64,000 nucleotides of DNA from assembly GCA_037308085.1 (NCBI GenBank), contig CP147779.1, forward strand, positions 2,592,001-2,656,000, in the 5' to 3' direction. Both the position numbers and the translations under genes were made by a program. The DNA is from Promethearchaeati archaeon SRVP18_Atabeyarchaeia-1. GTDB lineage: Archaea; Asgardarchaeota; Atabeyarchaeia; Atabeyarchaeales; Atabeyarchaeaceae. The stretch's first letter is position 1. Each line of letters starts with the position of its first letter. Below the pieces are notes generated by a model. The model searched no databases and had not been told where the DNA came from. It saw nothing but the letters and a program-made list of their open reading frames with translations. Shown here in pieces: positions 1 to 9,359 of the stretch.

Positions 1-888
1 TTCGTAGGCATGACCTAACTCATAACCGATCTGATATTCGATTGCGTCAATCCATTGCGCTACCGAGGGTTGAGAGATCCCCAGATCATGAGCGATTATC
101 TTTTGCTTATCACGCTCAAAGTAATAGCGACGATAGGCAATCAATTTTAGACCCAATGCTGTTGGCTTCCCAGTAGCTCCATATACTTCCTTGAGTTCAT
201 GTTCTTTGACCCAATCCTCAACATTGAAGTCAAAGGTAGGCGAGATATGTTCTGCGAGCTTTCCTTCTCTGAAGATAAAGCTATGACCACAAACATTGAC
301 CTGCGTGTCCTTGGTGCTTATCGCTGCCTTCTTGAATCTCAGTTCTGCTAAGAAGCTGATAGATTCCCTAAGCGTCCATTTAAGTGTAGGCAAACGAGCT
401 ATGTCAAGTATTCGCACTTTGTCATCTTTGAGAGCTTGTCGGAATGGGTTATCTTTGCTGATGGCTTCTCGGGGATCGCAAAGAGCGACATAGAATTCCT
501 CTACTTCTTTGAAGACCTTTTCCATGATCAGATCAAAGTCACTATCACCTTGCTCAGCAATGTGTTTGATAAAATCATTCTTGGCTTGCTTGAAGAACTT
601 GTTCAAGAAAAATACAGAGTACGAGAAGGAGCCGAACAGCTTACCCCATTTAAGTTGGGTATCAGTTAGATCGGCGGCTTTCGGGTTGGCGCGAATCTCG
701 CCCAAGTCAGCAACACTCAGAAGCTTATCCGCTAGATCCTCGGTGATCCTATCCTTGCCCCATACAGCGAGCCACTCCGCTATTTCTTTATCAGTCTCTA
801 GGCAAGCGATATCTTCCCTTTCAGCTTGCGTCAATTCGGGAATATCACTAACTTTGTTCATATCAATATTGACTTGCGATTCATTCAC
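1..888 (-). CDS. Hypothetical element protein with HTH (partial, runs off left edge; absent from ORF track)
   Basis: Manual translation from GTG 888 (GTGA overlap with upstream stop) is open for 296 codons to position 1: MNESQVNIDMNKV...YRRYYFERDKQKIIAHDLGISQPSVAQWI...GHAYE. The late segment resembles a sigma70-r4-like HTH. Confidence 0.75.
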   Translation of the reverse strand, partial: MNESQVNIDMNKVSDIPELTQAEREDIACLETDKEIAEWLAVWGKDRITEDLADKLLSVADLGEIRANPKAADLTDTQLKWGKLFGSFSYSVFFLNKFFKQAKNDFIKHIAEQGDSDFDLIMEKVFKEVEEFYVALCDPREAISKDNPFRQALKDDKVRILDIARLPTLKWTLRESISFLAELRFKKAAISTKDTQVNVCGHSFIFREGKLAEHISPTFDFNVEDWVKEHELKEVYGATGKPTALGLKLIAYRRYYFERDKQKIIAHDLGISQPSVAQWIDAIEYQIGYELGHAYE

Positions 889-1310
889 CAACCAAGTTCC
901 AACCCTTTCCTTTTGATTAGGGAGACATACGATTCTGGAATGCCGAACTTTCGACCTATCGCAGTTAGCGTCGTGCCTTTCTTCTTGTTCTTGATAGCGG
1001 CGTAAACTTCTTTCTGATCGATCCTTCCTCTATGTTTGATCGCTCTCTGTTTTCCCGTTCTAGCAGTGCTCTTACTCACGTTATATGCACTAAATTTACT
1101 TGGTTTCAATGGCTTCTTATTCAATGGGGCGAAATACCTTGGCACGAAATACTTGATTGAGCAGTTATCTTTCATGGGATCAGGACAATAGGTTACTTTT
1201 AGACGGCCATCCGGCAATTTCTTAACTTGCGTCTTGACCTTTTGCTTGCGGAGATTCTGAAGGAACTCTTCAATGGCAATTTCCTCATTTGAGAATGCGT
1301 AATCTCTCAT
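885..1310 (-). CDS. Basic protein with C-terminal HTH
   Basis: TTLTAIGRKFGIPESYVSLIKRK HTH pattern; GGAGG RBS upstream. Confidence 0.7.
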   Translation of the reverse strand: MRDYAFSNEEIAIEEFLQNLRKQKVKTQVKKLPDGRLKVTYCPDPMKDNCSIKYFVPRYFAPLNKKPLKPSKFSAYNVSKSTARTGKQRAIKHRGRIDQKEVYAAIKNKKKGTTLTAIGRKFGIPESYVSLIKRKGLELGW

Positions 1311-1342
1311 GATAACGCCTCCTTCATTACCAATTCAATATC

Positions 1343-1399
1343 AAAGAAAAGGGGAAATTAGGAAAGAGAGGGAACGAGATTGGGGAACCGCTCCCTCTC
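1343..1399 (-). terminator. Hairpin plus U/pyrimidine tract downstream of 147-aa membrane gene
   Basis: Arms 1366-1376 (GAGAGGGAACG) and 1389-1399 (CGCTCCCTCTC), followed on the minus strand by TTTCCTAATTTCCCCTTTTCTTT. Confidence 0.6.
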
Positions 1400-1441
1400 C
1401 GAACGTGCTTGTCTTAGATCGCGGAGGAACATGAGCTTGAT

Positions 1442-1885
1442 CTATTGCTTCGCGGATTGTCCCGCAACATAAATTCCGCAAGCGTATGCAACGATACCTA
1501 TGATCTCGAACAACGTATATACCCAAGTGGTTGTCAGAGAGAAATCCTCAGTTATGGTAATGATCCCTTGCATTTGCTGCCACATCCAATAGACACCAAG
1601 AAGCGCAAGCCCTGTTATCGCACCGAATACAGCACCCCAACCTTTGCTGTTAGTTCCAAGATATCCGAAGCCCACTGCACCAAAGATCGCTCCCGCAATG
1701 ATGGCACCGAAAATCTCAGCAAGAACAATGAGATCGCCTCCCACTATGTTGGCATAGATTACGTTCCAATCACCGAAGAACGTGATCTGAAGGACGGGAT
1801 ACAGGAATAGTAATGCCGCTACTATCGCACTAAGGAATCCACCAAGCTTCCCGACACTGAAACGATCCTCACAAGCCATTTTCAC
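1442..1885 (-). CDS. Gly-rich integral membrane protein, about 4 TM helices
   Basis: Four hydrophobic segments with GxxxG/AxxxG patterns; GGAGG RBS. Confidence 0.75.
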   Translation of the reverse strand: MKMACEDRFSVGKLGGFLSAIVAALLFLYPVLQITFFGDWNVIYANIVGGDLIVLAEIFGAIIAGAIFGAVGFGYLGTNSKGWGAVFGAITGLALLGVYWMWQQMQGIITITEDFSLTTTWVYTLFEIIGIVAYACGIYVAGQSAKQ

Positions 1886-1948
1886 TTATCGCCTCCTAAG
1901 GTCCTCAACCTCATGTGGCTCATTCCTCGCAGATAGATAACGGAATGA

Positions 1949-2125
1949 TTATGCAATAGCCCTCTCGACCAGACGAACCATATTCCCGCAACTTCGGCAT
2001 CGGTGCCAGTGAATAGTATAGGACATTCTTACGTCCTCTCGGATTGGCTCAACTATCGTGTTGAGTTGCCAATCATATCGATTGCCACAAGGACAGACGA
2101 GACCTCGATCAACTTTGTTGCTCAA
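1949..2125 (-). CDS. Small Zn-ribbon protein (58 aa; below ORF-track cutoff)
   Basis: TTG start after GGAGG; MSNKVDRGLVCPCGNRYDWQ...HRCRSCGNMVRLVERAIA. Confidence 0.65.
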   Translation of the reverse strand: MSNKVDRGLVCPCGNRYDWQLNTIVEPIREDVRMSYTIHWHRCRSCGNMVRLVERAIA

Positions 2126-2285
2126 GTTTATCGTCTCCTCCTATGGTTCGCTCAAGGTCAGCCTTCAATCTAAGCAATGCTTCTCTATTTGTCTTCAAAT
2201 TGTTACATCGTTCCGTGTTCCCACATTTGCTAAGCTTCTCGTCTATCTTAGTCAGCTCTTTCTTGATCTGATCCAAGTTCTTCAT
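2109..2285 (-). CDS. Small coiled-coil protein (58 aa)
   Basis: ATG 2285 after GGTGA RBS with ATGA overlap; MKNLDQIKKELTKIDEKLSK... Confidence 0.6.
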   Translation of the reverse strand: MKNLDQIKKELTKIDEKLSKCGNTERCNNLKTNREALLRLKADLERTIGGDDKLEQQS

Positions 2286-2398
2286 TTGCTCACCTTCTTT
2301 CTTGGTCTGCGCCAATGTTGTGTTGCGAGGAACACTAAGACAGCGATAGCGGGGATCACGAGCAAAGCGAGAGGCTCCGTGGTAAGAACGATGCTCAT
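2282..2398 (-). CDS. 38-aa single-TM peptide
   Basis: MSIVLTTEPLALLVIPAIAVLVFLATQHWRRPRKKVSK; ATGA overlaps at both ends. Confidence 0.6.
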   Translation of the reverse strand: MSIVLTTEPLALLVIPAIAVLVFLATQHWRRPRKKVSK

Positions 2399-2571
2399 TT
2401 CTTCCTTCGTTCCTCCTTCTCCTTGATCGGCTTGATGACGATTGATCTACCTCTGATCTCAACAGAGACGCACCGAACATTTCTGAGGGGATAGTGTTTG
2501 TCATTCTGCAAGAAAGCGGGAATATGGATGTTCTGTCCACCAACTTCACAAACCTTGGATCTGCCCCTCAA
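2395..2571 (-). CDS. AbrB/SpoVT-like swapped-hairpin DNA-binding protein (58 aa)
   Basis: TTG start; MRGRSKVCEVGGQNIHIPAFLQNDKHYPLRNVRCVSVEIRGRSIVIKPIKE... fits the IP...D..yP....V.vei.g..ivikp pattern. Confidence 0.55.
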   Translation of the reverse strand: MRGRSKVCEVGGQNIHIPAFLQNDKHYPLRNVRCVSVEIRGRSIVIKPIKEKEERRKK

Positions 2572-2584
2572 GTTCTTAGCACTC

Positions 2585-2602
2585 TCGATAGAATTCTATC
2601 GA
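2585..2602. promoter_or_regulatory. Perfect 18-bp palindrome, candidate operator
   Basis: TCGATAGAATTCTATCGA in the divergent intergenic region, just upstream of the leftward operon. Confidence 0.5.
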
Positions 2603-2825
2603 AACTAACTCCGGCTTCTGCGCTCTTAAGCTGGAGCGGAATCCATAGATCGAGAGAAAAGAGCGACGTAACTATCAAGGATATCCGAATGACCCGAGTG
2701 ATAGGCGGATAGCTCTGCTATCGATCTACCAGCTTGTTGGGGATCTAGCGAATTTTGACGGAACACCGCAGAGGTTATATGAGAGTTTTATCTTAATAAA
2801 GAATCGGAATCAGGAGGCTCGATGA

Positions 2826-3146
2826 ATGACAAAGATGATTGGCTTTGCAGTAACAGAGACGGCACATAGAAAACTAAAGACTTACTGCGCTCAGATCGGC
2901 AAATCGATGAGCAGAGTTCTAACCGAGTATTTTCAAGGGCTGCCCGCAACGGCGCCAAGAACGACCAATAACGAAACCCGGCTATCGAATATAGATCCTA
3001 TTAGATTGATAGCCCACGTAGATGAAAGCCTGGCAATCAAGTTTAACAAACATTGCAAGAAAGTTGGCAAGAGTAGGGACAAAGTTCTCGACGAGTTCAT
3101 TCAATCTCTGCCGAAGCGCCCGATCATAGAGGTTAGAGAGAGATGA
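2826..3146 (+). CDS. Tandem ribbon-helix-helix (CopG/ParG-like) repressor
   Basis: Two RHH units: MIGFAVTETAHRKLKTYCAQIGKSMSRVLTEYF and LIAHVDESLAIKFNKHCKKVGKSRDKVLDEFI. Confidence 0.75.
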   Translation: MTKMIGFAVTETAHRKLKTYCAQIGKSMSRVLTEYFQGLPATAPRTTNNETRLSNIDPIRLIAHVDESLAIKFNKHCKKVGKSRDKVLDEFIQSLPKRPIIEVRER

Positions 3147-3367
3147 GCAAGACAGATCCTTCTGATTTGCTGCCTGAAGAAATCATGTTGGTAATAGACA
3201 AAATGCTCGCTGCAATCAAGCAAAGGATGGTCGAAGAGTTCAACGTAATACTTCAAGACCCCTACGTCCGAAAAGATGAGCAATTCAAGAACGATGCCAT
3301 GCGCCAACGATATACAGTGCTTGTGCTTCGGAATCGGCTGAAATGGTTGATAGGTGATAATGAATGA
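3143..3367 (+). CDS. Hypothetical helical protein
   Basis: ATGA overlaps with both neighbours in the rep operon. Confidence 0.65.
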   Translation: MSKTDPSDLLPEEIMLVIDKMLAAIKQRMVEEFNVILQDPYVRKDEQFKNDAMRQRYTVLVLRNRLKWLIGDNE

Positions 3368-5064
3368 GCGATAAAGTCAAGTCTGATCCAGCGGAGGTCA
3401 AAGGCAAGAAGACTGAGATGGATACCTGCGGGGTCATAGGTTGTGCTGAGGTTGCCACCAGAGCCGTCTTCAAGAAGAGGATCGCTAAGCTAACCGAAGC
3501 AGGTCTGCAAGTAAAGACGGAAGGAAAGCACGTTAATCTCTGCGAGAAGCACTACGAGCTTACGAAAGAAGAGGCTGAGAAGGAGAAGCCCAAAGACTGC
3601 AAACCTTGTGGGGTGCTAGATAACGGAACTGTTTTCGAGTCGATTTACCTTGATAAGAAGCCATGCTTCCTTTGTTATGATGGGAAGAAGTTCTATACTG
3701 AGAACTCTGTTTTCGTTGAGGATGTGGAATATTCACCGACGACCAGAGATCAAGTGCCATATAGACCCTACCAGTTCTCACAGGCTGAGATAGATTACTA
3801 TAATGCGAATTCGGCCATCTCTGGTTTTGCGCTATATGAGAAAGTCAAGACGGAATTTGACACATTCATTTGCGCTGAGGATCCAATAATACTATCAAAC
3901 ACGATTAGGACGATAGAAAGCTATGTGCAACATTTGGAGAGCAGCGTAGGTTATGGTGATGTTCTTGGAGCCAAAGGATCAGGAAAGACTAGACTTCTTG
4001 AACTATACAATTACTTGGGTTACAGACCCATGTTCTGCACCAATGCGCCTAGCGCGGATATCTTTCGCTATTTAGGTTTTCATGGCGCAGGTAACGGCAT
4101 GATCCTAGAGGACGAGTGCGATAAGATGGAAGAAGACGTCGAAAAAATGAAGATATACCGATCTGGTTATAGGAAAGGTGCCAAAGTTCCGAGAATGGAA
4201 CAGAGTTTTCGGGGTGGCTTCGACCAAGTATTCTTTCCAACTTATTGCATTAAGGTCTTTGCCGGCATTGATGGGGTTAAGGACACGACTCTTAGGGATA
4301 GATGCGATGATACTCAAATGATTAGGGCTGATCCTTTGAAGGACGAGATCGTAGATGAAGAATCAGCAGAGGAGGGAACGCCTCTGACCCCTGAGTATAT
4401 TGACACGATGCGGTTTGACCTGATAAAGAAGGAGCTACTGGTCTGGAGAATGCAAAACTACCATACTCATTTGCCTGCCGCTCCGAATTTGATCTTCAAA
4501 GGTCGTTTCAAGGAAATATGGAAAGGGAAACTTAGGATCGCCCTTCTAATCGATCCGAATGATCACAAGGTCTATGACCAATTATATGATCACGCATTGG
4601 CTCTATGGAAGGAAGAGGAGGAGAATATTCAAACCAGCATGAACGCTGACCTAGCCAAAGCTTGCATGATCGCTTATTTCAGAGCAGGTCGGAAGGACTT
4701 GTTATTCAAAATTCCCTGGGGGGTTTTTCAGTGGATCGTGGGTGTTGCTCCCATAAATGAGAGTGCTAGAGCAATCGATACGGAGAACTACGGAACTATC
4801 TCATCGAGATGGATTGCCAAAATACTTAGGAATGAATTCGGCTTCAAGACCAAGAGGATATCACTTGGTCTATTAATTCAGGTCCGAGAAGCAGAGGGGA
4901 AGTTTGTGAAGATCCTAAAGAAGTATCACATCAAGACAGACGAAGTCGAGGCGCTCAATAAGAGATTTGAAGAGGAAACACTTGCACCTGCCAAAGACTC
5001 TGCCAAGAGCCTAGAAGATACTTTTGGGAATGCGCCAGATAATGCCGCTGACCAAGCAAAGTAG
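3364..5064 (+). CDS. P-loop NTPase, putative replication initiator/helicase of the element (resembles DUF3631-associated ATPases)
   Basis: Walker A GAKGSGKT, Walker B MILEDECD, GYRKGAKVPR, Arg-finger-like LRDRC; N-terminal Cys/His cluster CGVIGC...CEKH. Confidence 0.7.
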   Translation: MSDKVKSDPAEVKGKKTEMDTCGVIGCAEVATRAVFKKRIAKLTEAGLQVKTEGKHVNLCEKHYELTKEEAEKEKPKDCKPCGVLDNGTVFESIYLDKKPCFLCYDGKKFYTENSVFVEDVEYSPTTRDQVPYRPYQFSQAEIDYYNANSAISGFALYEKVKTEFDTFICAEDPIILSNTIRTIESYVQHLESSVGYGDVLGAKGSGKTRLLELYNYLGYRPMFCTNAPSADIFRYLGFHGAGNGMILEDECDKMEEDVEKMKIYRSGYRKGAKVPRMEQSFRGGFDQVFFPTYCIKVFAGIDGVKDTTLRDRCDDTQMIRADPLKDEIVDEESAEEGTPLTPEYIDTMRFDLIKKELLVWRMQNYHTHLPAAPNLIFKGRFKEIWKGKLRIALLIDPNDHKVYDQLYDHALALWKEEEENIQTSMNADLAKACMIAYFRAGRKDLLFKIPWGVFQWIVGVAPINESARAIDTENYGTISSRWIAKILRNEFGFKTKRISLGLLIQVREAEGKFVKILKKYHIKTDEVEALNKRFEEETLAPAKDSAKSLEDTFGNAPDNAADQAK

Positions 5065-5095
5065 CGCTCTATAATTAGCACTTTTGAGGATCTAG

Positions 5096-5329
5096 AGAGA
5101 ACTGAGTCATCTGGATCATTTGAGTCATTTGGATCATTTGGATCCTCTGAGTCATTCTAGCTAATTGGGCGCTCGGAGACGCGCTCTAGAAGAGGTTCTT
5201 CAAGCTCTAGAAATATGATAGCTCAAGAACCTCATCCCATAAGCGTCTTGGCGGTGCATATTATCGATAATGACTCAAATGACTGAAATGACTCAAATGA
5301 CTCAAATGATCCAGATGACTCAGTTCTCT
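5096..5329. repeat. 234-bp imperfect palindrome with 2x6 inverted 9-bp iterons; candidate replication origin
   Basis: Arms 5096-5156 and 5269-5329 match at 54/61 positions; unit TGAGTCATT or TGGATCATT; lies immediately after the rep-like stop. Confidence 0.9.
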
Positions 5330-5383
5330 GTTTTCTAGCTTGATCTGAAGCCATTAGCTATCATGACCCAGAACACGAGCGCC

Positions 5384-5722
5384 TCAACCAAATACGTCCA
5401 TCAGATTCTTATCAGATTCCACTGGCTTCGTTTGCGGTCTCTTCCTAGGCATGTGTCCTCTCCTCGATCTCCGAGGCATATAATATTCCCGCTCAGCTAC
5501 TTCCTTCCACGCCGCTGCGCGCTCCTCGTCAGTAAATAAATCAGGCGTTTTCTCTTCCCTCCTTTCTGGTTTATTTCTTCTACAGAGAATGTATTCCCAT
5601 GACTTTAAAACGCTTGTGTGGGAACTCCGAGAGCGCCCGGCATCTAACCATCTTGCTGGTTGATCCAGAACCCTGCGCGCAGTCATATATGTCTCATAGT
5701 ATATCGAGGGGAGGGAAGGCAC
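5384..5722 (-). CDS. Hypothetical basic protein
   Basis: 112-aa ORF convergent with rep; no recognisable motif. Confidence 0.35.
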   Translation of the reverse strand: MPSLPSIYYETYMTARRVLDQPARWLDAGRSRSSHTSVLKSWEYILCRRNKPERREEKTPDLFTDEERAAAWKEVAEREYYMPRRSRRGHMPRKRPQTKPVESDKNLMDVFG

Positions 5723-6042
5723 GAAAGAAATAGAGGGAATGGCTTCGATCCAATAGCCAACCTCAAGGTCATAGGCGATCTATTGCGCCCCCTTGATATT
5801 GTTCTTCTTGGTTGCCTGGAGAGGTTGAGTATCATTACGCACTTATTAGTATTGGAAGCTCGTCTATAAGAGAGCTTCAGAACCTAATGGGATCCCGGCA
5901 TCTGCTCAGAACTCCCGATCGAGGTTATATTGACAGTCGGTAGATGCGATCGCATAGTTAATATATGACCTCCCCTGCCATTGTCAAAAGAACATAAAAT
6001 GGAAAATTAAAGAGGATCTGTAGAGGAACGGGGGGTAGCCAT

Positions 6043-9000
6043 ATGGTAACCAAGGACCAGGCAAAAGAGCATATCAAGAAACTAGTTGAGACTTTCAAGA
6101 GCAACATTGATCAGTATCAACAAGCGAGTTACAAAGAAGCTCACGTCAGAAAAGAGTTCATCGATAAGTTCTTTGTTGCGTTAGGATGGGATGTCTACAA
6201 TGATGAAGGGAGGTCTGAGCGATACAAGGAGGTCATAAATGAGGACGCAATAAAGATTGGTGGAAAGACCAAAGCACCTGACTACGCCTTCAGAATTGGC
6301 GGAACAAGGATATTCTTTGTCGAGGCAAAGAAACCATCTATCAACATCAAGGAAGACGCTGAACCTGCTTTTCAACTTAGAAGATATGCATGGAACTCAA
6401 AAATCCCTCTTTCCATACTAACAGATTTTGAGGAATTCATAGCCTATGATTGCAGAGTCAAGCCTTCTCCGAAGGATGGCCCTGCTGTTGCACGGCTATT
6501 TAATCTGAACTTCGAAGAATATATGGACAAATTCGATACTATCTGGGATATCTTCTCAAAAGAGGCAGTTCTGAAAGGAAACTTTGATAGATATGTGGAA
6601 ACAAGTCAGGGGAAGAAAGGAACTTCTGAGGTAGATAGCGAATTCCTAAGTGAAATAGAGGCATGGAGAGATACATTAGCAAGGAATATTGCACTCAGGA
6701 ATCCCAAATTATCGATTTCTGAGTTGAATTATGCGTTACAGAAAACTATCGACAGAATCTTGTTCTTAAGAATCTGCGAGGATAGAAACATAGAAGACTA
6801 TGAAAAACTGAAAACCATAGTTCAAAACCCTGGCACATATGTATCATTATTGGGTTACTTCAGATTAGCAGACGAGAAGTATAACAGTGGAATCTTCGGT
6901 TTCGCTGATGACAGGATAACCGAGAAAATGGATATTGATGACAAACCTCTCAAAGATATCATAACCAGTCTTTACTACCCTTACTCCCCTTATGACTTCT
7001 CAGTTCTCAACGTTGAGATCTTGGGTAGCGTTTATGAAAGATTTCTTGGAAAGACTGTCAGGCTGACGAGCTCACATCAGGCGAAAGTTGAAGAAAAACC
7101 AGAGGTCAAAATAGCTGGTGGCGTCTACTACACCCCCGAATTCGTTGTCGATTACATAGTAAAAGAGACTGTCGGCAGGCTGATCGAAGGAAAATCACCT
7201 GAAGAGATCGAGAAAATAAGGATCCTCGATCCTGCGTGTGGCTCTGGAACTTTTTTGGTCAGAGCATATTCTTGCCTATTGGATTATCATCTCAACTATT
7301 ACTTGGGGAATCCGACAAAGTACTCAAAGGAGATCGTTCAACTGAAGGAAAACCAGTGGTTTTTGACTACTAGTACGAGGAAGAAGATACTGCTGAACAA
7401 CATCTTCGGCGTGGATATTGATCCTCAAGCTGTTGAGTTGACAAAACTGAGCCTCCTGCTCAAGGTCTTAGAGAATGAAACCAAAGAAACCGTCAACCAC
7501 CAAATGAAACTATCTCGGGAAAGAGCTTTACCAGACTTGGATAATAACGTTCGATGTGGCAACTCTTTGGTCGATTCCTCGTACTTAAAGCAGACTACTC
7601 TGGTCCCTAACGCAGAAGAACTAGCTAAGGTCAATCCATTCGATTGGGAAGACAAACAGAGTGGCTTTGGCAAAGCCATGAAAGATGTACGATTTGATGT
7701 AATCATAGGAAATCCGCCTTATGTCAAAGAAGATGTCAGAAAGGAGATTTTTGATGCAGTCAAACGCACAAACCTAAAGAAATACTACCAAGGAAAAATG
7801 GATTACTGGTATTTCTTTACATGCAAAGCAATAGACCTGATGAAAGAAGGTGGGTTACATAGTTTCATTGCTCAAAACAACTGGATAACCAGCGATGGAG
7901 CCTCAATCCTCAGAGACAAGATATTATCGGAAACAAGAATGGTAAAATTCTTTGATTTTAATGAATTCAAGGTCTTCAAGAAAGCAAGCATTCAGACAAT
8001 GGTTTTTGTCTTAGAAAGAAGAGAGACCACCGAGCCCTACCTCGTAGACTACTATAAGATTCTTGGTAGAGATGTTACAAAAGAAGAACTAAGGAATTAC
8101 CTCATGGCAGGCGGAGACGGCAAAAACTTGGAACACTCCGAAGTGACGATTTCACCCAAAGAGCTGATTGGTAAGACTATAACATTCACGGATCCAAAAA
8201 TCAACCGCATCATAGACAAGATCTATTCTAAAGGTAACATGTTCTTGAAGAGTGAAGATATAGGTAACGGGATAGATGTGTTGCAGGACTTTGTGTCGAG
8301 TGAACACCTAGAGATTCTAAAAGACTCGAGTATCAGCAAAGGAGACGGTATATTTGTTTTGAATAAGGAAGAAGTGAGAAAGCTAGGCTTCAACAAGACC
8401 GAGCTAGAGAAGATCAAGCCCTATTACACCTCCCGGGAGCTATTGAAATACTTCGGGGACGTTAGGAATAGGCACTGGATCATATACGCCGATAAAGATG
8501 TTAGAAGCAACATCAGTAGTTATCCAAATATCAAGAACCATTTAGATCGGTTTAGGAAGGTGCTGACTTCCGTATTCAAACCTTATGGACTGCACAGACC
8601 ACGGGAGCGGAAATTCTTCGAAGGAGAGAAAATACTTTCTCTGAGAAAAACGAAGGAGGTTTCGTTCACATATACCGACTTCCCGTGTTACGTTTCGAGA
8701 GCTTTCCTAATAATAAAGTCTCCAGACATAGATCTAAAGTATTTGACGGGATTACTGAACTCGAAGCTCGTGAATTTCTGGTTGTATCACAAGGGTAAGA
8801 AACAAGGAGAACAGCTCCAAGTCGATAAGAATCCATTAATGAAACTTCCAATTTATAAGCCAAATAACAAAGTCAGAGACGAGCTCAACACACAAGATGA
8901 GATATCGAGAACGGTCGATATGATAATTGAAACCAGCAAGAAGCTACTAGGCACAAAACTGGCTTCTGAGGAGACCATCCTGAGAAAACAAATTTCAACT

Positions 9001-9093
9001 CTAGAGGGAAAGATTGACGAAATGGTCTACGGGCTCTATGAGATTGCTGAATCTGAAAAGAGGGAGATCGAAAAGAGGATAGGCAAGAATTAG
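6043..9093 (+). CDS. Type IIG restriction-modification enzyme (Eco57I/TaqI-like fused endonuclease, N6-adenine MTase and TRD)
   Basis: PD-(D/E)xK motif PDY...FVEAKK, GGVYYTP, motif I ILDPACGSGTFL, motif IV IIGNPPY, TaqI-C-like YLTGLLNSKL. Confidence 0.93.
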   Translation: MVTKDQAKEHIKKLVETFKSNIDQYQQASYKEAHVRKEFIDKFFVALGWDVYNDEGRSERYKEVINEDAIKIGGKTKAPDYAFRIGGTRIFFVEAKKPSINIKEDAEPAFQLRRYAWNSKIPLSILTDFEEFIAYDCRVKPSPKDGPAVARLFNLNFEEYMDKFDTIWDIFSKEAVLKGNFDRYVETSQGKKGTSEVDSEFLSEIEAWRDTLARNIALRNPKLSISELNYALQKTIDRILFLRICEDRNIEDYEKLKTIVQNPGTYVSLLGYFRLADEKYNSGIFGFADDRITEKMDIDDKPLKDIITSLYYPYSPYDFSVLNVEILGSVYERFLGKTVRLTSSHQAKVEEKPEVKIAGGVYYTPEFVVDYIVKETVGRLIEGKSPEEIEKIRILDPACGSGTFLVRAYSCLLDYHLNYYLGNPTKYSKEIVQLKENQWFLTTSTRKKILLNNIFGVDIDPQAVELTKLSLLLKVLENETKETVNHQMKLSRERALPDLDNNVRCGNSLVDSSYLKQTTLVPNAEELAKVNPFDWEDKQSGFGKAMKDVRFDVIIGNPPYVKEDVRKEIFDAVKRTNLKKYYQGKMDYWYFFTCKAIDLMKEGGLHSFIAQNNWITSDGASILRDKILSETRMVKFFDFNEFKVFKKASIQTMVFVLERRETTEPYLVDYYKILGRDVTKEELRNYLMAGGDGKNLEHSEVTISPKELIGKTITFTDPKINRIIDKIYSKGNMFLKSEDIGNGIDVLQDFVSSEHLEILKDSSISKGDGIFVLNKEEVRKLGFNKTELEKIKPYYTSRELLKYFGDVRNRHWIIYADKDVRSNISSYPNIKNHLDRFRKVLTSVFKPYGLHRPRERKFFEGEKILSLRKTKEVSFTYTDFPCYVSRAFLIIKSPDIDLKYLTGLLNSKLVNFWLYHKGKKQGEQLQVDKNPLMKLPIYKPNNKVRDELNTQDEISRTVDMIIETSKKLLGTKLASEETILRKQISTLEGKIDEMVYGLYEIAESEKREIEKRIGKN

Positions 9094-9115
9094 TACACAA
9101 ACCAAACAGAGTATA

Positions 9116-9128
9116 GGAGACGGCGCCA
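9116..9128 (+). other. Putative att site: duplicated tRNA 3' end
   Basis: GG-AGACGGC-G-CCA reads as T-stem end, acceptor strand, G discriminator and CCA; no upstream tRNA body; followed by a pyrimidine tract at about 9134-9177. Confidence 0.6.
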
Positions 9129-9359
9129 TCAAGTTCTTTTCTCCCCCTTTCTTTTCCCTTCGCTCTGTTTTTCTCTGATTGCGCAACAAACATATTAACA
9201 GGAATGTCATTATTACATGGTAATTTCGGTCATCCTTTTAGTTTTCCAGCTACTGAGAATATTATGAGACATTTTGTTAGTTGAATTAACTTATTATAGG
9301 TCTTCAAGACTATTAAGCTATATGTGTGCGCCAAGGTCGTTCTGGAGGGTTAAAGTCTA

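Follow-up and report, generated by a model that had tools for sequence, protein, structure and literature searches.

A candidate replication origin of opposed 9-bp iterons behind the MCM-like ATPase gene of the Asgard archaeal element Yucahu-i

Introduction

Staphylococcal pathogenicity islands (SaPIs) have replication origins of ∼300 bp that lie immediately 3′ of the rep gene, with short iterons opposed around a central region. The iterons are bound by the C-terminal winged helix of Rep, presumably one hexamer per side, and no separate loader is involved (PMC9371898; bioRxiv 10.64898/2026.10.17.759575). The pRN1 minimal replicon of Sulfolobus consists of a ribbon-helix-helix (RHH) repressor gene, a rep gene and a downstream stem-loop of 100 nt (PMC4234260). 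Described here is a locus of comparable layout in the Asgard archaeon Atabeyarchaeum deiterrae-1. It lies in a window of 64,000 bp, bases 2,592,001–2,656,000 of the closed 2.8-Mb chromosome, and is part of the integrated element Yucahu-i (Valentin-Alvarado et al., 2024, PMC11529989). At window positions 5096–5329, directly behind a gene for a Rep-like ATPase (termed Rep below), there is a 234-bp imperfect palindrome built of 9-bp iterons. The probability that this palindrome is the vegetative replication origin of Yucahu-i is estimated at about three in four. Direct support comes from the anatomy of the palindrome, the conserved linkage between rep and the repeat arrays, and the fold class of the protein; that the element replicates is taken from the literature (PMC11529989).

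Yucahu-i and its helicase are already published (PMC11529989). The terms 'origin of replication' and 'iteron' are absent from the available portion of the main text of that paper, and no origin is named in the retrieved preprint passages on Yucahu-i. In the literature searched, no description was found of the Yucahu-i origin, of the MCM-like class to which its Rep belongs, or of the module of rep plus opposed iterons in Asgard archaea and Bathyarchaeia.

Structure of the palindrome

The features of the candidate origin and its presumed initiator are as follows.

5096–5329, no strand assigned: imperfect palindrome, candidate origin (ori) of Yucahu-i, from a repeat search and from a position after rep that is kept in 31 of 37 loci
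5103–5156, plus strand: left iteron array of six 9-bp units without gaps, of the TGAGTCATT and TGGATCATT types, read unit by unit
5269–5322, minus strand: right iteron array of six 9-bp units without gaps, in the opposite orientation to the left array, read unit by unit
5177–5248, no strand assigned: inner symmetric core of the palindrome, two inverted pairs around the axis 5212.5; not AT-rich
3364–5064, plus strand: Rep (P0001), MCM-like AAA+ ATPase of 566 amino acids, putative self-loading initiator-helicase, from motifs, profile search and predicted fold

The repeat search reports a single imperfect palindrome with arms at 5096–5200 and 5225–5329, each of 105 nt and together 76% complementary. 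The left units are, in order, TGAGTCATC, TGGATCATT, TGAGTCATT, TGGATCATT, TGGATCCTC and TGAGTCATT. Read from the outside inwards on the opposite strand, as the reverse complement, the right units are TGAGTCATC, TGGATCATT, TGAGTCATT, TGAGTCATT, TCAGTCATT and TGAGTCATT. The outer 61-bp arms (5096–5156 and 5269–5329) match at 54 of 61 positions, and their outermost 36 bp, which include 7 bp (AGAGAAC) beyond the arrays, are identical. Further inwards, AGACGC (5177–5182) and GCGTCT (5243–5248) form one inverted pair and GAGGTTCTT (5192–5200) and AAGAACCTC (5225–5233) form another, both centred on 5212.5. The palindrome begins 32 bp past the stop of the ATPase reading frame at 5064. Six units facing six inverted copies, the extent of the arm match, the two inner pairs on a common axis and the 32-bp distance had all been noted in a first-pass annotation of the window, and each was recovered unchanged when the sequence was re-read and the matches recomputed. 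The same annotation placed an AT-rich centre between the arrays, and this did not hold. The spacer (5157–5268) is 52.7% AT, compared with 56.4% for the element as a whole, and the most AT-rich 20-mers are found at 5258–5280, beside the right array, and at 5068–5087.

The palindrome is far beyond chance expectation. Its single-strand folding energy is −67.7 kcal/mol, against −26.5 ± 3.6 kcal/mol for shuffled sequences (z = −11.5). In the whole genome of 2,808,651 bp, Tandem Repeats Finder (TRF) reports about eight arrays with a period of 6–12 and at least four copies, and two of these are the palindrome arms; an opposed partner was found for none of the four other arrays examined. The sequence TGAGTCATT, allowing up to one mismatch, is present in eight copies within the palindrome and in 13 copies in the remaining 64 kb, which is the background level. 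No open reading frame in the list for the window extends across 5096–5329, so that the arrays are non-coding here.

Elsewhere in the genome, five contiguous 9-bp units (TCATACTAA) are found at G000:C1:1352449–1352498, and an inverted partner is missing up to a distance of 500 bp. Apart from the palindrome arms, the genome has no further non-coding-looking 9-bp array of such size.

The Rep protein

Rep displays a Walker A motif (GAKGSGKT) and a Walker B motif (ILEDE), and the ATPase core is followed by a predicted helical or winged-helix-like C-terminal domain. No family match was obtained with Pfam (E ≤ 0.01) or NCBIfam (E ≤ 0.1). The MCM family PF00493 is matched neither by Rep nor by any of 59 aligned relatives. 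DUF3631 (PF12307) is also not matched by Rep, and is matched by two of the 59 relatives and by some fused forms; the relationship between Rep and DUF3631 is distant. A profile made from the four closest relatives of Rep retrieves 6,402 proteins at a cut-off of E ≤ 1e-3, of which 328 remain at E ≤ 1e-30. The longer relatives have Prim-Pol/AEP primase domains at the N-terminus, a CHC2 zinc ribbon and a weak DUF3631 match; Pfam detects no Prim-Pol domain in Rep itself. Sequence searches of the PDB, with the single protein or with a profile, gave nothing meaningful, and no relative of Rep was found in a scan of viral contigs.

The class assignment comes from the predicted fold. An AlphaFold model of residues 76–566, based on the 59-sequence alignment, has a pLDDT of 90; a five-sequence alignment had reached a pLDDT of 50 only. 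When the model was compared with the whole PDB by VIA, the top match was the MCM protein of M. kandleri (Z 16.3, 250 residues aligned, model residues 1–345), and in a second search the top 50 chains were all MCM (Z 14.6–16.3, ∼250 residues aligned). Other VIA matches are SCCmec Cch (5dgk_B, Z 14.2, 328 residues aligned, model residues 3–455), SaPIbov1 Rep (8tch_B, Z 10.4, 308 aligned, model residues 4–457), PriRep1 (Z 9.5) and the papillomavirus E1 protein (2v9p, Z 9.5, 169 residues aligned). The alignments with SaPIbov1 Rep, Cch and PriRep1 extend to model residues 453–457. Foldseek lists the helicase region of NrS-1 first (E 2.7e-06), followed by ORC/Cdc6, MCM, AAV Rep40 and papillomavirus E1. 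Every match of the model to SF3-type structures (E1, Rep40 and the NrS-1 region) is weaker than the MCM matches. As modelled, Rep is a replicative AAA+ ATPase with a fold nearer to MCM, Cch and the SaPIbov1-type Rep than to SF3 helicases. The earlier designation 'Rep-like ATPase' can accordingly be narrowed to an MCM-like AAA+ helicase by predicted fold, one that can be aligned with Cch and SaPIbov1 Rep along almost the whole chain.

Residues 1–75 of Rep (3364–3588) form a Cys/His-rich extension (C22, C27 ... C60, H63) that is missing from the closest homologues. Many Bathyarchaeia homologues have a conserved Cys-rich domain (CVCCG...CGPCG) at the C-terminus, past the arrays. Perhaps a zinc module has moved between the N- and C-terminal ends in this family.

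Opposed arrays in homologous loci

Homologous loci were drawn from one Bathyarchaeota metagenome-assembled genome in the genome contigs, from metagenome contigs, from genomes of the phylum to which the window belongs, and from Bathyarchaeia. Opposed arrays with a period of 7–11 and at least two units per side were scored by a uniform detector in paired 700-bp regions of the same loci: the 3′-end region (100 bp before to 600 bp after the end of the match), the region upstream of the match, and the first 700 bp of the match. In the 3′-end region, 31 of 37 loci have opposed arrays (at least four units), and 20 of 37 have at least six units. The upstream control has such arrays in 4/31 loci (at least six units in 1/31), and the in-gene control in 7/37 (at least six units in 0/37). 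Thus the test named beforehand in the first-pass annotation, that homologues of the ATPase should also be followed by inverted short-repeat arrays, came out in favour of the proposed linkage.

In a first set of loci, the conserved part of rep has opposed arrays at its 3′ end in all nine that are informative (L003, L004, L005, L007, L008, L010, L011, L012 and L013). The period is 9 bp, except for 8 bp in L010, and the unit sequence varies by locus, as the left-array units illustrate.

L003: GTAAACGAT
L004: ATGTTCTAT
L005: GTAAATGAT
L007: ATAAATGAT
L008: TTACCGAGT
L010: ATCGTCAC
L011: units of the TTAACTAAG type
L012: TTATCTAAC
L013: CACTAACCT

The relatives have two to eight units per side, and at least eight distinct types of unit sequence are found across the loci. 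A second detector was applied to 250 random 4-kb segments of the host genome, none of which scored 13 or more and one of which scored 10 or more. Seven of the first ten rep loci scored at least 13, six of them via the rep-proximal arrays; in L003 the top score derives from another repeat region. L003, on the Bathyarchaeota contig, has a second and larger repeat field at 5053–5541, ∼500 bp past the rep-proximal arrays, with ∼14 copies of a ∼21-bp unit (ATCTGGATATCTC...).

The genes upstream of rep are non-homologous across the loci: an RHH gene in the window, AbrB/MazE in L003 and L010, and nothing recognizable in the others. Since these small genes are not conserved, Rep is the sole conserved partner of the arrays. 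Judged by sequence comparison, the same combination of gene and repeats recurs in dozens of archaeal elements. Short contigs with homologues showed no terminal overlaps that would indicate circularity.

Details of the region between and around the arrays vary. AT-rich spacers are clear in L003, L004, L005, L007 and L010, and are not seen in the window or in L008. Inner palindromic extensions past the arrays are also present in L004 and L007. In many Bathyarchaeia loci (e.g. L025, L028–L031, L039 and L042) the arrays are inside the ∼600-amino acid rep reading frame, ∼0–300 bp after the conserved match. There they sit in a linker that joins the conserved body of Rep to the conserved Cys-rich domain at the C-terminus, and their translation gives tripeptide repeats, for example VNDVNDV or LSNLSNL. 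Translation of the arrays may be the reason that the period is near a multiple of three.

In the window and in L010-like loci, the top strand of the left array carries a shared TCATTT/AAATGA sub-motif; in L003, L005 and L007 the sub-motif is in the right array. Iterons may thus point inwards in some elements and outwards in others, although the similarity is short and could be due to chance.

A Rep homologue is present in 5 of 400 genomes of the window's phylum, its own genome counted, and in 46 of 401 Bathyarchaeia genomes. The family is therefore ∼10 times commoner in the sampled Bathyarchaeia (∼11%) than in the Asgard phylum (∼1%), with unlike E-value cut-offs for the two scans (1e-20 for the phylum and 1e-10 for Bathyarchaeia). 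Several Bathyarchaeia genomes have two to four Rep copies. The integrases have been remarked to resemble those of Bathyarchaeia (PMC11529989), and in line with this the distribution suggests that the Asgard copy of Rep came from a mainly bathyarchaeal pool. The module of rep and ori is found beside a tRNA-Met gene in L008 (2318–2395) and beside a convergent tyrosine integrase with a zinc ribbon in L012 (2947–3816). It therefore travels on different integrative backbones.

The Yucahu-i element and its circles

The borders and the other genes of the element are the following.

9284–9294, plus strand: core of the right attachment site (attR), AATTAACTTAT, from the direct repeat, the empty site in a same-genus genome and the published motif and length
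L002 6417–6427 (window −1583, outside the window), 10,867 bp upstream of attR: attL core, AATTAACTTAT, from the direct repeat
L002 6404–7669, just upstream of the window: tyrosine integrase gene, from a gene scan of L002
2826–3146, plus strand: RHH protein of 106 amino acids, first gene of the rep operon and likely repressor (ParG in PMC11529989), from weak matches only
3143–3367, plus strand: 74-amino acid protein of unknown function, from the list of open reading frames
5384–5722, minus strand: open reading frame whose 3′ end and the 3′ end of rep flank the palindrome, from the same list
6043–9093, plus strand: Type IIG restriction-modification fusion, element cargo, from Pfam matches Eco57I, MmeI_Mtase, HSDR_N and TaqI_C

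The host element of the palindrome is Yucahu-i of Atabeyarchaeum deiterrae-1. The 11-bp sequence AATTAACTTAT is repeated directly, with one copy at L002 6417 (window −1583) and the other at L002 17284 (window 9284), a spacing of 10,867 bp. Both the motif and the length agree exactly with the published description of Yucahu-i from Atabeyarchaeum deiterrae group 1 (Valentin-Alvarado et al., 2024, PMC11529989), and the borders are independently reproduced. In a same-genus genome (G003), the ParA-like and MarR-like genes that flank the element are ∼255 bp apart with a single copy of the core region between them. From this empty site it follows that the element is an intergenic insertion without a counterpart in relatives. 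Integration into a tRNA gene was considered and rejected, because no tRNA is predicted in the window, at 9116–9177 in particular, or in L002 and because the empty site shows an intergenic insertion with its boundary at 9284–9294.

In read data, circular Yucahu-i is up to four times as abundant as the integrated copy, a level seen in a 60-cm sample. A smaller circle of 2,644 bp, 'mini-Yucahu-i', has also been described; it carries 'ParG, a hypothetical protein and RuvB' (PMC11529989). These genes can only be those at 2826–3146, 3143–3367 and 3364–5064. A 2,644-bp segment with the RHH, 74-amino acid and ATPase genes must end between 5064 and 5469. The first-pass annotation had proposed a minimal replicon at this locus, and the proposal fits both the gene content of the small circle and the fourfold copy number of the circular element. 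No short direct repeats at a spacing of 2,644 bp were found as circle boundaries. An 8-mer, GTCATTCT, at 2500 and 5151 was discarded as a boundary, as its copies are 2,651 bp apart and do not match the length of the circle.

One ATPase of Yucahu-i has been termed an SF3 helicase and a possible replication initiator (PMC11529989). It is presumably the product of 3364–5064, because this is the sole large ATPase gene of the element; the ATPase of Yucahu-i thus carries two published annotations, SF3 helicase and RuvB. The matches of the RHH protein are all weak: an Arc-like repressor (PHROG), the N-terminus of BfmA (NCBIfam) and ParG (PF09274, E 0.02). The 74-amino acid protein has no family match in Pfam, NCBIfam or PHROG and no counterpart that is kept in related loci. 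Its gene overlaps the RHH gene at one end and rep at the other, which suggests translational coupling. No primase domain was found in the Yucahu-i open reading frames scanned, among which the short leftward frames were scanned in part.

The Type IIG restriction-modification gene is expressed, and Yucahu-i has been classed as an integrative conjugative element (PMC11529989). Among the element open reading frames scanned with Pfam, NCBIfam and PHROGs (window 1–9294 and L002 6417–8000), there is no match to conjugation proteins (relaxase, VirB4 or coupling protein). The gene content, consisting of integrase, regulators, rep, ori and restriction-modification cargo, looks more like that of an integrative plasmid or a satellite-like island.

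Comparison with described replicons

By analogy with described systems, the Yucahu-i ori would be of a known type, an iteron origin situated 3′ of the gene for a self-loading initiator-helicase. The SaPIs and related phage-inducible chromosomal islands (SaPIbov1 Rep, PDB 8TCH; PMC9371898) resemble Yucahu-i in being integrase-bearing islands with the origin directly 3′ of rep. They also have short repeats in two opposed sets with at least two iterons per side, where Yucahu-i has six and six. SaPI Rep proteins are hexameric AAA+ helicases that bind DNA through a C-terminal domain, and the SaPIbov1-type protein is MCM-like; Yucahu-i Rep is AAA+ by its predicted fold, and its model aligns with that of SaPIbov1 as given above. 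There are several differences. The two proteins have no detectable sequence similarity. SaPI iterons are penta- or hexanucleotides, whereas units of the Yucahu-i type are 8–9 bp long and in contiguous tandem. The AT-rich region between the SaPI iteron sets is missing in Yucahu-i but present in the five relatives with clear AT-rich spacers. A primase gene upstream of or fused to rep, as in SaPIs, is likewise missing among the Yucahu-i open reading frames scanned, with the Prim-Pol fusion found in longer relatives. The host of Yucahu-i is archaeal, and we know of no helper virus for it.

SCCmec Cch (PDB 5DGK) is the best full-length structural match to Rep, and like Rep it is encoded on an integrative element with a site-specific recombinase. 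There is no relation to Rep at the sequence level, and the likeness is drawn from the protein fold and not from the origin.

The pRN1 replicon has, like Yucahu-i, an RHH gene, a rep gene and a downstream palindromic stem-loop. Its genes are in the same order as those of mini-Yucahu-i, and it is of similar size, with 3.1 kb for the pRN1 minimal replicon and 2.6 kb for the mini-circle. The pRN1 replication ATPase has a C-terminal winged helix, and the downstream stem-loop is required for replication (PMC4234260). Its Prim-Pol fusion resembles that of the relatives of Yucahu-i Rep. However, the pRN1 origin is explicitly without iterons (PMC4234260), and its ORF904 is an SF3 helicase fused to Prim-Pol, whereas Yucahu-i Rep has no primase domain and a more MCM-like fold.

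Cellular MCM proteins need ORC/Cdc6 loaders and do not themselves read the origin sequence. The AAA+ core of Yucahu-i Rep resembles that of archaeal and eukaryotic MCM, but Rep has no Pfam MCM match and is ∼490 residues long without the N-terminal extension. A symmetric origin would direct two opposed helicase hexamers, as in the origins of SV40 large T antigen and papillomavirus E1. The lambda ori is inside the O gene, and in many relatives of Yucahu-i Rep the repeats are similarly within the rep reading frame. Phage P4 alpha, with its ori/crr iterons, is a multifunctional initiator-helicase that binds short repeats via a C-terminal winged helix (summarized in PMC4234260). P4 alpha and lambda O belong to other protein families and to bacterial hosts.

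Proposed mode of replication

After excision, Rep would recognize the 9-bp units through its winged-helix-like C-terminal domain, in analogy with SaPI Rep and SCCmec Cch. One Rep hexamer may assemble on each arm, the two in mirror orientation, and the hexamers could then deform the DNA and separate its strands, either between the arrays or inside them. They would self-load as a pair of divergent helicases, after which the primase and polymerase of the host would take over. Priming by host enzymes is assumed because no primase was found among the element open reading frames scanned. The product of the RHH gene at the head of the operon is probably a repressor of rep, in the manner of ORF56 in pRN1. 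It may be speculated that the unit period of 8–9 bp, which is about five sixths of a helical turn, lets six sites make about one circuit and so suits a six-fold ring. The first-pass annotation had pictured head-to-head loading sites around an unwinding element. The first part of this proposal is strengthened by the opposed arrays 3′ of MCM-like rep genes in 31 of 37 loci, and for the second part, the centre is not AT-rich in this locus.

Several observations weigh against an origin function. As the spacer is not AT-rich in Yucahu-i, an obvious unwinding element is not visible, although published work reduces the force of this objection. By the uniform detector, 6 of the 37 loci have no opposed arrays (L039, L048, L049, L050, L052 and L053). 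On inspection by eye, L039 and L050 seem to have degenerate opposed arrays, L049 has a direct array only and L048 has other direct repeats only; L051, with a detector score of 4, is not clear by eye. Some of the 37 loci are close kin, so that the counts overstate independence. The C-terminal winged helix of Rep is deduced from the full-length alignments of the model and from a weak match to MCM_WH_arc in one relative (E 0.0077), and should be regarded as predicted. The similarity of array units was also compared with domain-wise protein identity, using consensus units from 26 loci (276 usable pairs). The rise is weak: the Spearman coefficient is 0.18 with identity in the ATPase core and 0.17 with identity in the C-terminal domain. 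Units are on average 0.55 similar at C-terminal identities below 30% and 0.62–0.65 similar above 30%, against a random baseline of 0.53. Unit similarity thus tracks the presumed DNA-binding domain no more than the ATPase core, which speaks neither for nor against recognition of the units by that domain. Lastly, in the available portion of the main text of PMC11529989 the 2,644-bp circle is described by length and gene content, which would fit a circle with or without the palindrome.

Alternative explanations

Arrays of short direct or inverted repeats are the typical binding sites of RHH proteins, among them ParG, ParR, omega and CopG. The arrays of Yucahu-i could accordingly be a centromere-like or operator site of its RHH protein, with a role in partition or copy-number control. 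The RHH gene heads the operon, and its annotation as ParG (PMC11529989) has a parallel in the weak PF09274 match. However, in related loci the arrays are kept beside rep and the RHH gene is not, and no partner ATPase of the ParA/ParF or ParM type is found inside the att borders. A ParA-like gene does lie directly beyond attL, but it belongs to the chromosome and is also present at the empty site in relatives. In addition, the 9-mer is absent from the divergent promoter region (2572–2825), the place expected for an operator, and the repeats are instead 3′ of rep. The lack of conservation of the RHH gene and of a partition ATPase inside the att borders makes this explanation improbable, if marginally the best of those considered here.

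The palindrome might also act as a cruciform or hairpin, either as a bidirectional terminator of convergent genes or as a junction or resolution site that gives rise to the 2,644-bp mini-circle. The predicted hairpin is indeed very stable, it is between the 3′ ends of rep and of the minus-strand frame 5384–5722, and the end of the mini-circle falls in the interval 5064–5469. On the other hand, in many relatives the arrays are within the rep frame and precede the conserved Cys-rich domain, where a terminator would make no sense. What is conserved is a tandem 8–9-bp periodicity with opposed orientation, which goes beyond a mere hairpin, and there is no direct repeat at the spacing of the mini-circle. 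Because of the intragenic arrays of the relatives and their conserved periodic, opposed units, a terminator or recombination hairpin is unlikely. A stem-loop can also be the origin itself, as in pRN1 (PMC4234260), so that this explanation merges in part with that of a replication origin.

That the arrays are leftover coding tripeptide repeats or an assembly artefact, with no cis function, is excluded for the window locus: a 9-bp period is a multiple of three and the arrays of relatives are translated, but in the window the palindrome is free of open reading frames, coding leaves the inverted second array unexplained, the same layout recurs in dozens of genomes and contigs that were assembled independently, and the genome is curated and closed with element borders confirmed by reads (PMC11529989).

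Significance

A replication origin for Yucahu-i thus remains the favoured interpretation of the palindrome. A wider reading, tentative and in our estimate rather doubtful, is that the module of rep and ori represents a large unnamed class of archaeal replicons and, jointly, that mini-Yucahu-i is a natural and self-sufficient minimal replicon made up of the RHH gene, the 74-amino acid gene, rep and ori. In this class an MCM-like helicase would load itself on opposed 8–9-bp iterons, which are often in frame and encode a tripeptide linker. If this is true, no Asgard plasmid smaller than mini-Yucahu-i would be known, and a vector backbone would be available ready-made.

To our knowledge, there is no genetic system for Asgard archaea, and no replication origin has been defined for any Asgard mobile element. 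Yucahu-i is among the few Asgard elements with read data for excision and for a copy number above that of the chromosome. With a candidate origin at 5096–5329 and an initiator assigned by predicted fold to the MCM-like, putatively self-loading helicases, a concrete module of ∼2.6 kb becomes a candidate for a vector backbone. The recurrence in Bathyarchaeia offers dozens of natural variants, each with its own unit, with which to ask how an MCM-like ring may read an origin without ORC/Cdc6. The island layout of integrase, regulator, rep and ori, as in staphylococcal SaPIs, would thereby be extended to the archaea, and both convergence and deep homology are possible explanations of the likeness.

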